A stretch of 57,407 bases of DNA from the NCBI GenBank assembly GCA_947629765.1, contig CANREW010000004.1, forward strand, positions 1 through 57,407. Reading direction: 5' to 3'. Positions 44,655-57,407 of the stretch are shown here, one piece after another (within the stretch, counting starts at the first letter, position 1; every line of letters starts with the position of its first letter). The notes under the pieces are model-generated. The model worked only from the letters and a program-made list of their open reading frames with translations. It did not search any database and was not told where the DNA came from. The stretch comes from an uncultured Clostridia bacterium (GTDB lineage Bacteria; Bacillota; Clostridia; TANB77; CAG-508). Made by a program: the position numbers and the translations under genes.

Positions 44655-45149
44655 TTATTTATAACTTTTCTTTATTCTTTGTATAGCCGTTTTTTCAAGC
44701 CTTGAAACTTGTGCTTGTGAAATACCTATTTCTTCTGCAACTTCCATTTGTGTCCTTCCGTCAAAAAATCTTTTTGTTATTATTATTTTTTCTCTTTTAT
44801 TTAACTTCTTCATTGCCTCTGCTAAGCTTAAATTTTCTGCCCATTTTTCATCTGTATTTTTGGTATCACTAACTTGATCCATTATAAATATATTTTCTGC
44901 ACCATCTTTATAAATTGGTTCTTGCAGAGATATAGGATCTTGTATCGCATCAAAGCTAAATGCAATTTCCTCTTTTGGAACTCCAATCTCTTTTGCAATT
45001 TTTTCTATCGTAGGCTCTTTACCCTCTTCTTTGGTTAGTTTTTCTCTTGCTTGTATTGCTTTATATGCTAAGTCTCTTATAGAGCGACTAACTCTTATTG
45101 GATTATTGTCTCTTAAATATCTTCTAACTTCTCCAATTATCATTGGAAC
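44655..45149 (-). CDS. sigG: forespore sigma factor SigG, 3' part (interrupted)
   Basis: VPMIIGEVRRYLRDNNPIRVSRS...GISQAQVSRLEK; preceding codons YAV reappear at 57399-57407. Confidence 0.9.
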   Translation of the reverse strand, partial: VPMIIGEVRRYLRDNNPIRVSRSIRDLAYKAIQAREKLTKEEGKEPTIEKIAKEIGVPKEEIAFSFDAIQDPISLQEPIYKDGAENIFIMDQVSDTKNTDEKWAENLSLAEAMKKLNKREKIIITKRFFDGRTQMEVAEEIGISQAQVSRLEKTAIQRIKKSYK

Positions 45150-45182
45150 GATTATATGTTAGTTGAAGTATGACTTAAAAAA

Positions 45183-46541
45183 TTAAACTACATTGTTGTA
45201 GTATATCATAATGTTATTGTCTTTTATTACTATTTTGTTTATTAAAGAAACTAATATATTTCTTTGCTCTTGGAAAGATAAATCATTCCATACTTCATGT
45301 AAATTTTCTATCTTGTCTTTGAAATTCTTTATACTTATGTCCTTTTTCTTTTTGTTATTTATTATTTTTTCAATTCTCTTTTTTTCATCTTCTAAGTTTT
45401 TCATTTTATCTCTTATTTCATTTGTAAAATATCCTTCTGCTAAAGCACTTACTAAATTTTCAATCTGCTTGTCTATCTCTTTTAGTCTACTTTCTGCAAA
45501 TTCTTCGGAATCTTTTATATTATCTGTCATTCTTTTATCAAAATAGTTATCGTCAAGTGATAATTTAAACAATTCATTTAGAACATATTTTTCTACTTCG
45601 TCTGCTTCTGCTCTAATGTTGGGACAATTAGGATCTCTAATTAATCTTGGTCTACTTTTCTGCTGAGAATAGCAATATACTTTTGTTGAGTTTTCTGTCC
45701 ATTTTTGGTATCTGAATTTTGCTCCACAATACCCACAATAAATTAGTCCTGAAAGTAAGTAACTTGATTTTTTCAAATCATTATTTCCTCTTTTTTTCAG
45801 CATTTCTTGTACTTCGTAAAACAATTCATCACTAATTATATGTTCATGTTTGCCTTCATATATTTCCCCTTTATAGGGAATTTTACCTATATAAACTGGA
45901 CTTCTTAATACTTTCCTAACTACAGTTTCTCCTGACATTCCTAAAGTATCATTAATTATATCTGGCGACATTCCTTCGAGATATAATTTAAAGACTTGCC
46001 TTATCATTTCAGCTTGTTTAGGCTTTATTACTAATGTTCCTGTATTTCTGTCATAATCATATCCTAGTGGTGTAAGTCCACCTCCCATCCATAGTCCTGA
46101 CTTAACTCTTTCTTTCATTCCCATTCTTGTTCTTTCATAAATTGTTTCTCTTTCTAATTGTGCAAATACTGATAAAATTCCTATCATAGCCTTCCCAAAT
46201 GGTGTTGTTGTATCAAAATTTTCCCTTATTGATATGAAACCTATATTATTAGGATTAAAGACTTCTTCGATTAAATATAAAGTATCTTTTTGACTTCTTG
46301 AAATTCTATCTAGTTTATAGACTATTACATAATCAATTTTTTTTGCTCTTACGTCATCTAACAGCTTCTTTATACTAGGTCTATTAAGATTACTACCACT
46401 ATAACCTCCATCAATATAATATTCATAGTCCGAAATTTCTTTAGATATACAGTAAGCCTCTAGCAATTGTTTTTGAGCATCAATAGAATATCCTTCTACT
46501 TGAGCATCTGTTGATACTCTACAATATAACCCTGCTCTCAT
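45183..46541 (-). CDS. large serine recombinase/integrase
   Basis: YCRVST, DRISR, zinc ribbon CGYCG; start MRAG after GAGGAGG. Confidence 0.95.
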   Translation of the reverse strand: MRAGLYCRVSTDAQVEGYSIDAQKQLLEAYCISKEISDYEYYIDGGYSGSNLNRPSIKKLLDDVRAKKIDYVIVYKLDRISRSQKDTLYLIEEVFNPNNIGFISIRENFDTTTPFGKAMIGILSVFAQLERETIYERTRMGMKERVKSGLWMGGGLTPLGYDYDRNTGTLVIKPKQAEMIRQVFKLYLEGMSPDIINDTLGMSGETVVRKVLRSPVYIGKIPYKGEIYEGKHEHIISDELFYEVQEMLKKRGNNDLKKSSYLLSGLIYCGYCGAKFRYQKWTENSTKVYCYSQQKSRPRLIRDPNCPNIRAEADEVEKYVLNELFKLSLDDNYFDKRMTDNIKDSEEFAESRLKEIDKQIENLVSALAEGYFTNEIRDKMKNLEDEKKRIEKIINNKKKKDISIKNFKDKIENLHEVWNDLSFQEQRNILVSLINKIVIKDNNIMIYYNNVV

Positions 46542-46615
46542 TATGTACCTCCTCATAAAAAATGGTACATATAAAAACAGCAAAACTATGTTATTTTTAT
46601 TATACCATCCCAAAT

Positions 46616-46765
46616 TTAATTATTCAATGCCTTGTCCTTGACTTTTTCATTCTCTTTTTCTCTTATATATCTATTTAATACTTCATATACTAATTTATTT
46701 TTTATTTTTATATTTTCACTTTTAGTTTCTACATCATTAACAAATGTCATTACATTATAAACCAT
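46616..46765 (-). CDS. 49-aa protein upstream of integrase (candidate RDF)
   Basis: GGAGGAGG RBS; MVYNVMTFVND...ALNN; function inferred from position only. Confidence 0.5.
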   Translation of the reverse strand: MVYNVMTFVNDVETKSENIKIKNKLVYEVLNRYIREKENEKVKDKALNN

Positions 46766-46842
46766 CTAAGCCTCCTCCTTCCAAGTCTTTAATCACATTA
46801 TAGACAATTTTATTTTACTTCATACAGATTAAAATAAAATTT

Positions 46843-47286
46843 CTAAAATTCAATATCATTTTCTTCTATAAATTCACTTATTCCATCGGTATTTACATTA
46901 TTAATTTGTATTTCTTCTCTTGAATCTGACAATAATGTTCTAAATCCTAATTCATTTTGTAAATTTACTATTTCTATAAGTTCATTTTTATTTCTTGCGA
47001 TTCTAAGTAAGTTTGCTGTTACAATTAAATTAATTTTCTTTTCTATAATATCTTGTATCATTTTTTTATATGCTGGTTTGTCTTTAGCAAACTCATCTAT
47101 TCCTGCATCTATATATACTTCTTTTATATGTAATCCTAATTGCACACAATATTCTTCAACTCTTTCTTTTTGGTATTGTATTACATCAACATCTTTTAAC
47201 ACTCTTGCTGTTCTAATATATATGCCGACATTATAGCTTTCAGGATTGTCTAGTTTGTTGATTTTTTTACCAGATTTTCTGCTCAA
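46843..47286 (-). CDS. resolvase N-terminal-domain protein lacking catalytic Ser
   Basis: GIYIRTA, Q.....YC, YIDAG, RIARN. Confidence 0.75.
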   Translation of the reverse strand: MSRKSGKKINKLDNPESYNVGIYIRTARVLKDVDVIQYQKERVEEYCVQLGLHIKEVYIDAGIDEFAKDKPAYKKMIQDIIEKKINLIVTANLLRIARNKNELIEIVNLQNELGFRTLLSDSREEIQINNVNTDGISEFIEENDIEF

Positions 47287-55702: not shown

Positions 55703-55832
55703 ATATTTTCCTCCTTTCTCGTATAATTTTTTTAAAAAATGAATAATCTAATACAAAATGCGAGGCTCTCTCGCTATTTTATAAAAAATTTGTAATAAAA
55801 TCAAGAATAATAATTTAATGTGGGGGATTTAT

Positions 55833-56072
55833 TTGAAAAAATACGATAATAAAAGCAATGTAATAGGTAATTTAATAAAAGAATATAGATTAAAAAAGAA
55901 GTTAAAGAAAAGTGAAGTATGTAGAAAACTACAATTACATGCTATTTATATGGATCCGACTGAATTAAATAGAATGGAAACAGGTAGAATGATTATTAAA
56001 GATTTTGAATTAATTGGCTTATGCAAGGTTTTAGAAATAGATTATGATGATTTAAAAAATTCAATAGAATAG
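55833..56072 (+). CDS. XRE-family regulator (copy 2)
   Basis: identical protein to copy 1. Confidence 0.8.
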   Translation: MKKYDNKSNVIGNLIKEYRLKKKLKKSEVCRKLQLHAIYMDPTELNRMETGRMIIKDFELIGLCKVLEIDYDDLKNSIE

Positions 56073-56451
56073 TATGAGAAAAGATAGCAAATAACTGCTA
56101 TCTATTTTCTTATACATATTATATTTTTAATCGTTTATATTACCTTCATGTACAACTAAATCCACCTCTAGCAAATTACTTGGCTTAAATAATATCATAA
56201 ACATAAAAGATTATCAATAAATACTAACTTTAGAAATTTTTATTATTTTACGCAGGAAAGTGTTCATAAGGAACACCTAGGACACATAAAAGGCAAGCCT
56301 TTTAGATTATTAATATAAAAAAATGTTATTAATTTTTTAATAAAAGTACCAAGACGTGGGACTTATATATTTTCTACTTTCAATTTGTAGTTATTAGCTT
56401 TTTTCTTGTTATTGTGATATTTCTTAAGTTGATTATAAAATTTACTACTTA

Positions 56452-57255
56452 CTAATTTTTAGGCAAAAAAATAGAGGAGTTATTCCTCTTAATCATTTCA
56501 TTTTGTATAGTTTTATAATAATAGCCAATAAAATCGTCTATTTCGTTATCTGTTTCTTTATAATCCATTTCTTTTGCTTTACACTTATTATAAAGATATA
56601 TCAATTTATCTCTTGTTATATTATAAGTGAACTCTTGCAAATTATCTTTAACTATTAAAGCTATTACATAAGTAATTTCTTTTATTTTATCTAGGTTATT
56701 TCTCTGCATGTAAGTTATCATGTTTTTTGTATAGAGCATTTCATATTTATCAAGTAGCTCAATTATTTTCAATTTTTCTACATTTTTAAATTCTTTTGGA
56801 ACTTCTTTTTTATTTTCTATAATATAATTAAACAATATATCTATCTTATTATTTATATTATTATAGGTGAATTTATTTTCATTCGCCTCTATGAAACTAT
56901 TTTCATAATCTCCTATGAAATTTTTTTCTTGCCCTACAGCATATGATATAAAAATTTTTCTTTGATAGTTATTTTTTATAATGACTTTTATATATCCTCT
57001 TTCTTCCAACTTTGAAATGGCATTTTGAATTGAGCGAGTAGTACAATTATATAATCGTGCAAAATACTTATTTGTAGCATAGCAATATCCTTCTTTATTA
57101 CTCAAACACGCAATTTCTCCATATAATAACTTTGCTTTTTCTGTGAGTTGATTATCATATCTAACATCAGCTGGTATAATAACATAATAGTTAGCTTTAT
57201 TGTTTTCTTTCATTTTTTTCGCTTCTTTCATAATAAGATTTTTACCCATCATCAA
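56452..57255 (-). CDS. replication initiator-like HTH protein (copy 2)
   Basis: identical protein to copy 1. Confidence 0.75.
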   Translation of the reverse strand: MMMGKNLIMKEAKKMKENNKANYYVIIPADVRYDNQLTEKAKLLYGEIACLSNKEGYCYATNKYFARLYNCTTRSIQNAISKLEERGYIKVIIKNNYQRKIFISYAVGQEKNFIGDYENSFIEANENKFTYNNINNKIDILFNYIIENKKEVPKEFKNVEKLKIIELLDKYEMLYTKNMITYMQRNNLDKIKEITYVIALIVKDNLQEFTYNITRDKLIYLYNKCKAKEMDYKETDNEIDDFIGYYYKTIQNEMIKRNNSSIFLPKN

Positions 57256-57394
57256 TATGTCAAAAATTGTGTATAGGTAAATATAGCTTTTTATTGTTGC
57301 AAATTAAAAACAGCAATCGTAAAATTGCTGCTTTTAATTTAATATCAATAGTTTTGCTGGTTTATATGTTATTACTTCTACTAACACATTACCG

Positions 57395-57407
57395 TTGGAA
57401 CTGCATA
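57395..57407 (-). CDS. sigG: end of sigG 5' part at the element junction (runs off window)
   Basis: TAT GCA GTT CCA A = YAVP, the residues preceding MIIGE in SigG; only 13 nt visible. Confidence 0.7.

Follow-up and report, generated by a model that had tools for sequence, protein, structure and literature searches.

How could a bacterium complete a spore when the gene for its late forespore sigma factor, SigG, has been cut in two by a mobile element? A stretch of 57,407 nt from an uncultured Clostridia bacterium (GenBank assembly GCA_947629765.1, contig CANREW010000004.1) raises this question. The stretch, referred to here as the window, is the whole of contig C4 of the host genome, G000, a metagenome-assembled genome of 1.23 Mb in 49 contigs that is 88% complete. 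All described intervening elements of sporulation genes sit in mother-cell genes, and this location is the accepted reason why they can be excised in each sporulation and yet be inherited. SigG acts in the forespore, so the repair of an interrupted sigG must take place in the heritable genome and not in the mother cell. Here, we describe a 6.1-kb element that splits sigG in this genome, its large serine recombinase, and a family of related recombinases that lie beside sigG halves elsewhere. On balance, and with modest confidence, we read the element as a reversible insertional switch on spore completion, with no developmental control claimed for it.

The 3′ half of sigG occupies positions 44655–45143 on the minus strand. 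Its open reading frame (ORF) begins with MIIGE (MIIGEVRRYLRDN) and encodes 162 amino acids (aa) with Sigma70 regions 3 and 4, covering positions 90–253 of the SigG model TIGR02850 with a score of 268.9 bits. Of the 5′ half, only its end lies in the window, whose final bases, read on the minus strand, are TAT GCA GTT CCA, encoding YAVP. The gene carries on in a second contig, C48, which holds the missing 5′ half and whose end overlaps the window end by exactly 77 nt; we infer that this overlap is of the kind typical of de Bruijn contigs. On C48, the 5′ half has a TTG start at position 3346 and runs to FSTYAVP, after which the frame enters the element and ends in TVMC and a stop codon (i.e., the junction reads YAVP/TVMC-stop). 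A 7-bp core, TTGGAAC (GTTCCAA on the gene strand), lies at both breakpoints. At 45143–45149, it forms the attR-type junction between the element and the sigG 3′ half; at 57395–57401, as the third core of the window, it forms an attL-type junction with the last 6 nt of the 5′ half (57395–57407, minus strand).

Genome G010, from the same genus, shows what the site looks like when empty. At its locus L014, sigG is uninterrupted, with TATGCAGTTCCAATGATAATTGG at the site. The left part of L014 aligns with C48 at 97.7% identity and the right part aligns with the window up to position 45149 at 94.2%, and the two alignments share 14 nt at the core. Because this empty site is colinear with both flanks, core-to-core recombination would restore the frame; indeed, precise excision between the direct cores rebuilds an open frame in silico. 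The protein encoded by the 3′ half is 100% identical to the same part of the uninterrupted G010 gene, and both halves are identical in protein to the intact gene of the sister species. The split at YAVP/MIIGE, its core and the restored frame, all of them described in the initial annotation of the window, are real, and the 5′ half that it expected beyond position 57407 is the one on C48.

The same annotation asked for a second sigG to be excluded. None of the 11 TIGR02850 matches in the 88%-complete G000 reaches the cut-off of the model, and the next best match is sigF-like. For comparison, the intact G010 gene, with CGGN read as glycine (see below), encodes 257 aa and scores 447.5 bits with NF006071, the SigG equivalog (cut-off, 372), and 445.1 bits with TIGR02850, slightly below its cut-off of 457. 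The annotation also looked for sigE beyond the window, but sigE is not next to sigG: the sigE-like ORF is on contig C34, and the ORFs upstream of sigG on C48 are a tyrosyl-tRNA-synthetase-like ORF and two small ORFs, all of these being named from their translations only. One further feature of the 5′ half requires comment. It carries one extra C (TTT-C-GGA) ~120 nt before the split, near C48 position 3514. This does not make sigG a pseudogene, because the extra C reflects a genome-wide peculiarity in the reading of CGGN, to which we return below.

What lies between the two halves is smaller than it first appears. The initial annotation drew one element of ~12.25 kb, which can be ruled out: the insert is a 6.1-kb element drawn twice, as two identical tandem copies of 6,126 bp (0 mismatches in 6,126 nt) at 45150–51275 and 51276–57401 on the minus strand, with each of its eight ORFs present twice. 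Each copy includes one core, and the GC content of the element is 23.7%, versus 28.4% for the flank. Because the middle junction (51248–51295) joins the two ends of the element, it is of the attP type. Its core, at 51269–51275, is flanked by imperfectly inverted arms (51248–51260 and 51283–51295) with the sequence ACTTC(T/A)ACTAACA, which are complementary at 12 of 13 positions as read by eye, and the centre of symmetry is the CC of the proline codon.

Four public runs labelled as rabbit gut metagenome, X1–X4, contain the stretch almost whole and are the probable source of the assembly. The evidence from these runs consists of Logan contigs, from which rare variants are dropped; uncovered parts and the many short joints with sides of 20–30 nt were excluded from use. 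In X1, a 2,163-nt contig with a depth of 6.36 runs from the flank over the core to position 45172, an element contig with a depth of 9.63 starts exactly at 45143 (depth of the right part, 8.9), and a 53-nt unitig with a depth of 3.0 spans the attP junction (51246–51298). These depths correspond to ~1.5 element copies and ~0.5 attP junctions per flank. In X2, a contig extends 1,299 nt past the element end (51275) into sequence that does not fit an attP continuation; our reading is that this sequence is the 5′ side of sigG. The dimer in the contig is probably the path taken by the assembler through a loop in its graph, with the population holding an integrated copy together with either a circle or, in some cells, a second tandem copy. 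In runs X5 and X6, the matching sequences are fragments of the element with 97–99% identity or the sigG of a relative; the X5 fragments come from another study.

The same data bear on the possibility that the contig is a chimera produced by assembly or binning and that the element sits in the sigG of no real cell. The genome is metagenome-assembled, the tandem dimer stops 6 nt past a repeat at a contig end, and its copies are identical, as the traversal of a loop would yield. Against this, both junctions occur on separate contigs with a 77-nt overlap, contigs from an independent assembler bridge the attR junction (X1, 44400–45172) and run 1,299 nt past 51275 (X2), and the same type of junction is present in dozens of unrelated assemblies, as described below. 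X1, being the probable source sample, is not independent of the assembly. Overall, we consider an artefact extremely improbable.

The gene nearest the sigG 3′ half encodes a large serine recombinase (45183–46541, minus strand; 452 aa from MRAGLYCRVSTD, in an ORF that is open to 46613), and its stop codon is 34 nt from the core. The protein has the catalytic-serine motif RVSTD and all the features of a three-domain large serine recombinase (PF00239 Resolvase, E 8.6e-40; PF07508 Recombinase, E 2.1e-12; PF13408 Zn_ribbon_recom, E 1.7e-10), and it matches the phrog_95 integrase family (E 1.4e-132). Directly upstream is a 49-aa ORF (46616–46765, minus strand) that matches no family in Pfam or PHROGs and is, by its position only, a candidate directionality factor. 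Next comes a 147-aa paralogue of the recombinase catalytic domain (46843–47286, minus strand), which is 34% identical to the element's recombinase, lacks the DNA-binding domains, and has RVLKD where the recombinase has RVSTD, i.e., leucine in place of the catalytic serine. As a matter of speculation, this dead paralogue could modulate the recombinase through mixed oligomers.

The rest of the element suggests a small plasmid rather than a phage. A type III toxin of the CptIN family (47701–48432, minus strand; 243 aa) scores 165 bits with NF047359 (cut-off, 90). Type III antitoxin RNAs are typically laid out as a promoter, tandem repeats and a terminator ahead of the toxin gene. The region upstream of the CptIN gene (48452–48623, minus strand) has this layout, with a 12/12 match to the sigma-70 promoter (48623–48594), two repeats 47 nt apart (48512–48538 and 48559–48585), and a 12-bp hairpin followed by a T-run (48480–48452), which points to a putative antitoxin RNA; a search of positions 44400–51400 against Rfam gave no match at E values up to 1. 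Beyond it are two XRE-type helix-turn-helix (HTH) regulators on the plus strand (48875–49201, 108 aa, PF01381 E 2.1e-13; and 49692–49946, 84 aa, PF01381 E 4.6e-06), separated by a 123-aa ORF on the minus strand (49205–49576) with no family in Pfam, PHROGs or NCBIfam. The last gene (50326–51129, minus strand) encodes a replication-initiator-like protein of 267 aa with an HTH_36 domain (PF13730, E 1.3e-15) and matches to phrog_270 (E 7.5e-21), phrog_19658 and phrog_428, which are replication initiation families, and to phrog_186, a DnaD-like loader. This identity comes from PHROGs alone, the protein having no NCBIfam match. All genes except the two XRE regulators share the orientation of sigG.

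The rep-like gene and the addiction module of the initial annotation are thus borne out. Its description of the element as skin-like holds in part: this is a recombinase-bearing element inside a sporulation sigma gene, but its content differs and phage genes are missing. Among the eight ORFs, PHROGs searches found no phage structural, packaging or lysis genes, and the matches are confined to integrase, regulators, replication and one family of unknown function. The best match among plasmid records covers 5% of the element and the best among phage records covers 6%. Among metagenome contigs, the recombinase has its best match on a contig of 1.5 kb, where 153 residues align at 82% identity. No circular contig of the element was found in plasmid records, phage records or metagenome contigs.

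Is the insertion into sigG an isolated event? Relatives of the recombinase with 42–53% identity were found at 89 loci, on 9 viral contigs and in 80 species-representative genomes. At 40 of the 89 loci, the recombinase stop codon is no more than 250 nt from a sigG 5′ half that ends in YAVP and is encoded on the opposite strand; at eight more, it is equally close to a sigG 3′ half on the same strand, as in the window. Another 36 have no sigG half nearby (three of these have sigG pieces further off), and the ORFs listed around them do not resolve an insertion target. Five loci end too early to judge. A sigG half therefore adjoins the recombinase in 48 of 84 informative loci, including four of the nine on viral contigs. 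The 48 loci come from Lachnospiraceae, Oscillospiraceae, Monoglobaceae, Defluviitaleaceae and unclassified Clostridia. Metagenome contigs, which in part represent the same records, add 59 loci with at least 40% identity, of which 17 adjoin a sigG half, 14 leave no room for one, and 28 have neither. A further 21 distant metagenome loci (<30% identity) have no sigG half, although 20 of them cannot be judged since the match or the contig ends first.

The family is faithful to one site. Its junctions align at CCNATGA, the host side reads ...TAYGCNGTNCCNATGA, and the arms of the clade elements, TTTCGACA... and ...TGTCGAAA, repeat one another in inverted orientation, with a centre of symmetry that, read by eye, also falls on the proline codon. 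In a tree of 88 recombinases (L067 was left out because of a stop in the match), one clade of 56 holds 41 + 7 sigG-adjacent loci with support of 98/89. Members of this clade lie beside a sigG half at the same site, in either orientation and on very different carriers. When the other seven proteins of the window element were compared with the 89 loci, the only matches were those of the dead resolvase domain to recombinases and one weak XRE match. Because the other genes of the element have no relatives at these loci, the recombinase and its att site appear to be a modular unit that moves between carriers. Most family recombinases, including those away from sigG, are preceded by a conserved ORF of 40–60 aa (MxxxRYINGxxx...IxNxxxxxxIxxVxxR; loci L027–L115), which is a candidate directionality factor. 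The 49-aa ORF of the window element occupies the corresponding position, but its membership in this small-ORF family is not supported: MAFFT aligns it, but the family profile gives it an E value of 2.5 and rank 11 among 16,136 ORFs.

Two loci have unusual layouts. At L089 (the same as L237), the sigG 3′ half is at 1092–1565, the recombinase at 8001–9347 and the sigG 5′ half at 16270–16545. The halves are separated by 14.7 kb, and the recombinase lies centrally between them instead of at an edge, which suggests two different elements stacked in one site. In a cultured Lachnospiraceae isolate (L080; genome G042, contig C5), the sigG halves lie at 57127–57411 and 227029–227517 on the same strand, ~170 kb apart; this spacing implies either one very large insert or several stacked inserts.

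Carriers look like spore formers that still need SigG. Five carrier genomes were read, and none has a sigG match that reaches the model cut-off; two show both halves and three show only one. The SpoIVA frame and the SpoVAC/SpoVAEB frames are open in all five. In the host of the window element, a scan of G000 found Spo0A, SpoIVA, SASP, SpoVA and SpoIIE, with spoVAEB present in two frames on contig C25 (11499–11826). Searches of the full-text literature gave no description of a sigG-interrupting element, although supplements might list sites of this kind; the sigG-targeting recombinase family is apparently undescribed.

We propose the following scheme. A 6.1-kb integrative, plasmid-like element has been inserted by its own large serine recombinase at a fixed site, the V-P-M codons of YAVPMIIGE. 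In the sampled population, each chromosome would carry an integrated copy, with about half a further copy per chromosome as a circle or in tandem. The integrated element breaks the only sigG, and only precise, recombinase-mediated excision would give back a working gene. Excision would require some directionality factor and, whether it preceded sporulation or took place in its course, would have to affect the heritable genome. The excised circle could then be kept by the replication-initiator-like gene and CptIN until it re-integrates. On this scheme, the element would act in the manner of active lysogeny rather than as a mother-cell element of the skin type. The anatomy of the element, its sites, the empty site in the sister species, the attP junction and the recombinase family are direct observations, and both the occurrence of excision in this host and the role of the replication and toxin-antitoxin genes in holding the excised form are inferred.

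Several observations weigh against this scheme. First, no empty site (attB) of the same strain, for which the initial annotation proposed a check, was found in the Logan contigs of X1–X4, and the X1 contig crosses the core unbranched; the attB motif is likewise missing from the G000 assembly. The X1 result is weak evidence because Logan contigs drop rare variants, and some short contigs with 1–4 mismatches that end at 45146 are probably the intact gene of a relative. Second, the attP junction is present in the data, as expected for the circle that the initial annotation envisaged, but by itself it cannot separate a circle from a tandem, which would give attP equally. In X2, moreover, flank and element are in one contig, with no attP piece among the matches listed. 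Third, the window recombinase falls outside the clade of 56, where it forms a long branch (1.1) beside four relatives that have no sigG half nearby (support 94/52), and its core (GTTCCAA) and attP arms are unlike the ones found in the main clade. The window element works like the clade but is at best a distant or independent member of it. Fourth, a search with the small-ORF-family profile picks no directionality factor in the element. Lastly, the whole element occurs in one of 25 genomes of the genus and in none of the 24 others.

Some of these observations would also be expected if the insertion were simply a dead end. In that case, sigG would be knocked out, the strain would no longer complete spores, the attP junction would come from a true tandem formed by homologous recombination, and sigG would merely be a conserved landing site. 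The element is rare in the genus, where 11 other sigG loci were read and all are uninterrupted at this site, and no empty site was seen in the sample. In addition, large serine recombinases commonly use conserved coding sequence as their target, and loss of sporulation is common in gut Firmicutes. However, the sigG halves are still identical in protein to the intact gene of the sister species, sporulation genes are open in the host and in five other carriers, and dozens of independent carriers from many families keep the site and the halves. We therefore regard a dead end as distinctly unlikely, and continue to favour a reversible switch.

Whether such a switch is under developmental control is a separate matter. 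Excision might be programmed: sigma-F, or read-through from the sigG promoter, would trigger it in the forespore germ line, sigG would be rebuilt and the spore would mature, and the replication protein and the CptIN module would keep the circle in the spore until it re-integrates after germination. The established forespore role of SigG, which requires repair in the heritable genome, is consistent with this, as are the intact late sporulation genes of the carriers, the size and site fidelity of the recombinase family, the attP junction, the replication and addiction genes, and the co-orientation with sigG of all element genes except the XRE regulators. There is also a forespore-type promoter-like motif 68 nt before the sigG start on C48, one of 23 such motifs genome-wide. 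The motif is, however, absent from the element, including the region before the recombinase, and read-through may be stopped by a hairpin and T-run that separate the attL junction from the first gene of the element. At 40 of the 48 sigG-adjacent loci, the recombinase gene and the sigG 5′ half are convergent, which means that promoter capture cannot be general, and no empty site was seen in the Logan contigs of the probable source sample. Thus, the argument of the initial annotation for germ-line excision stands insofar as the mother cell cannot repair a forespore gene, but nothing links excision to sporulation or to the forespore. We regard programmed excision in this host as doubtful. The broader proposition, that sigG-splitting elements in general are germ-line developmental switches that are excised in the forespore, pass through dormancy as episomes (maintained, in the present case, by a replication protein and a type III toxin-antitoxin), and re-integrate after germination, strikes us as unlikely, and slightly more so.

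The extra C in the sigG 5′ half belongs to a pattern that extends well beyond this gene. An extra C precedes a conserved glycine codon in sigG (TTT-C-GGA), in sigF (contig C18, ~9700; AAT-C-GGA) and in sigK (contig C1, 132277–132868, minus strand; ATT-C-GGA). We considered these three genes as decaying pseudogenes and rejected that interpretation: each break consists of one C before GGA, and housekeeping genes are restored in a similar way. The genome was scanned for sites flanked by at least 60 open codons, in the zero frame upstream and in the +1 frame downstream, with the zero frame closing within 30 codons downstream and the +1 frame within 30 codons upstream. There are 207 CGGN sites of this kind in G000, comprising 151 of 1,872 for CGGA, 41 of 929 for CGGT, 10 of 517 for CGGC and 5 of 393 for CGGG. 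Control motifs gave 10 of 3,361 (CGAA), 8 of 8,897 (CAGA), 0 of 5,347 (CTGA) and 49 of 11,385 (AGGA, mostly beside true sites). In ORFs of at least 150 codons, in-frame CGG occurs 173 times within 30 codons of the stop and 46 times elsewhere, a ratio of 3.8, compared with 0.12 for all codons. Sites in the window are at 7404 on the plus strand and at 9849, 10111, 10700, 14304, 32643, 33112, 40100 and 43947 on the minus strand; the eight genes of the element contain no in-frame CGG. When CGGN is read as a four-base glycine step in genes of the window, Pfam domains become complete from end to end (TatD, 1–253 of 253; IMS, 1–148 of 148), and IMS_C (Pol IV), both LD-carboxypeptidase domains, CDP-OH_P_transf (PgsA-like) and SpoIIE are restored as well.

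Reading CGGN in this way is a mark of the genus. For the survey of relatives, each genome was represented by a single piece no longer than 20 kb. Among the other members of the genus, 21 of 24 genomes have at least one site (106 of 1,494 CGG), versus 2 of 2,252 CGG in 16 genomes from other families of the order and two sites in 120 kb from six genomes of the family's other genera. CGGN sites within sigG vary among species of the genus, meaning that they are gained and lost. The codons that precede CGGN are diverse (CTT 29, GTT 17, GAC 15, and others), which argues against slippage in the P site. In appearance, the trait resembles either quadruplet decoding, occurring naturally and throughout the genome, or hungry-codon frameshifting. 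A second tRNA-Gly, with an acceptor stem that is glycine-like as read by eye, has the anticodon region C-U-U-C-C-G-A, in which UCCG is the exact complement of CGGA; a conserved U30–C40 mismatch would instead permit a loop of 8 nt, CUUCCGAC. The tRNA occurs in 14 of the 24 other genomes of the genus, in all 23 sampled genomes of the family's other genera, and in one genome of another family (e.g., L143:1501–1574, minus strand; L144–L147, L139 and L188–L199). It was not found in G000 (88% complete, with 23 tRNAs), G010 or G008. Reassignments of CGG in low-GC Firmicutes were reportedly described by Shulgina and Eddy in 2021; literature searches found no description of the CGGN reading.

Three side observations concern the same trait. 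The gene directly downstream of sigG (43584–44466, minus strand) encodes 293 aa with no Pfam family if the CGGA at 43947 is read as glycine, and is split into ORFs of 185 and 63 aa under translation table 11. Among sporulation sigma genes, sigF and sigK have one CGGA site each and sigE has none, so that three of four are affected compared with ~1/6 of genes genome-wide; this enrichment may be due to chance or may be a regulatory layer. Finally, an ORF of 469 codons on the plus strand of contig C1 (~152,500–153,100) has four in-frame CGG codons with no shift; in this it departs from the remainder of the genome, and it may represent foreign DNA, part of a contaminant contig, or an RNA gene.

With sigG, a forespore gene, as the one site of a large family, the mother-cell rule is broken, and the carriers keep the remaining sporulation machinery. 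This can be understood in two ways. Gut bacteria may rearrange their germ-line DNA and then restore the element, or part of the population may routinely have its spore formation switched off by mobile elements, with consequences for the transmission of gut Clostridia. If true, the former would be a programmed, reversible DNA rearrangement in the heritable genome of spore formers, beyond the disposable mother cell. The cultured L080 isolate offers a culturable carrier of a split sigG, and the family recombinases are a ready set of integrases with one known target of 40–50 bp. The CGGN reading, if confirmed, would be a natural, genome-wide four-base codon.

How, then, does the element compare with known systems? 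Recombinase structures give one point of reference. The nearest solved structures to the window recombinase are the integrases of TP901-1 and A118 (E 4.2e-30 for the catalytic domain and 2.1e-16 for the C-terminal domains), which differ in att sites and carriers. The Listeria comK prophage is an example of active lysogeny. Together with SpyCIM1 in mutL, it represents the closest likely mode, in which an insert leaves the heritable genome, persists as an episome, and returns. Elements of this kind are phages or phage-like and respond to infection or growth phase, according to a 2026 review (PMC13492144); re-integration of the element described here is a proposal.

Among elements in sporulation genes, SPbeta is an active phage of 134 kb that interrupts spsM. 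It shares with the sigG element a serine integrase (SprA), the reconstitution of a gene by excision, and two possible routes of excision; it differs in having a directionality factor, SprB, no counterpart of which was identified in the sigG element. During sporulation, SPbeta is excised in the mother cell alone and is retained in the spore genome, according to PMC4191935. The skin element in sigK of Bacillus subtilis and Clostridioides difficile is likewise a large-serine-recombinase element (SpoIVCA) inside a sporulation sigma gene, with the recombinase gene at its edge by the att site and with excision that rebuilds the frame. However, skin is a prophage remnant of 14–48 kb, whereas the sigG element is 6.1 kb long with replication and toxin-antitoxin genes and no phage genes. 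The targets differ too: according to PMC4191935 and PMC13492144, the genes interrupted by skin, SPbeta and similar elements are those of the mother cell, and excision is limited to that terminally differentiated cell and is lost with it, while here the target is a forespore factor. A 2022 preprint on sporulation gene sets lists sigK alone as a split gene. The gin element in gerE of Bacillus cereus ATCC 10987 is also a small, non-prophage element in a sporulation gene, as described in PMC5595907; gerE is a mother-cell gene, unlike sigG. Set beside the sporulation-gene intervening elements as a group (skin, SPbeta, vfbin, vrin and gin), the element described here lies inside its target gene, carries its own recombinase and rebuilds the frame in silico, as they do, but that target is the gene for SigG rather than a gene of the mother cell.

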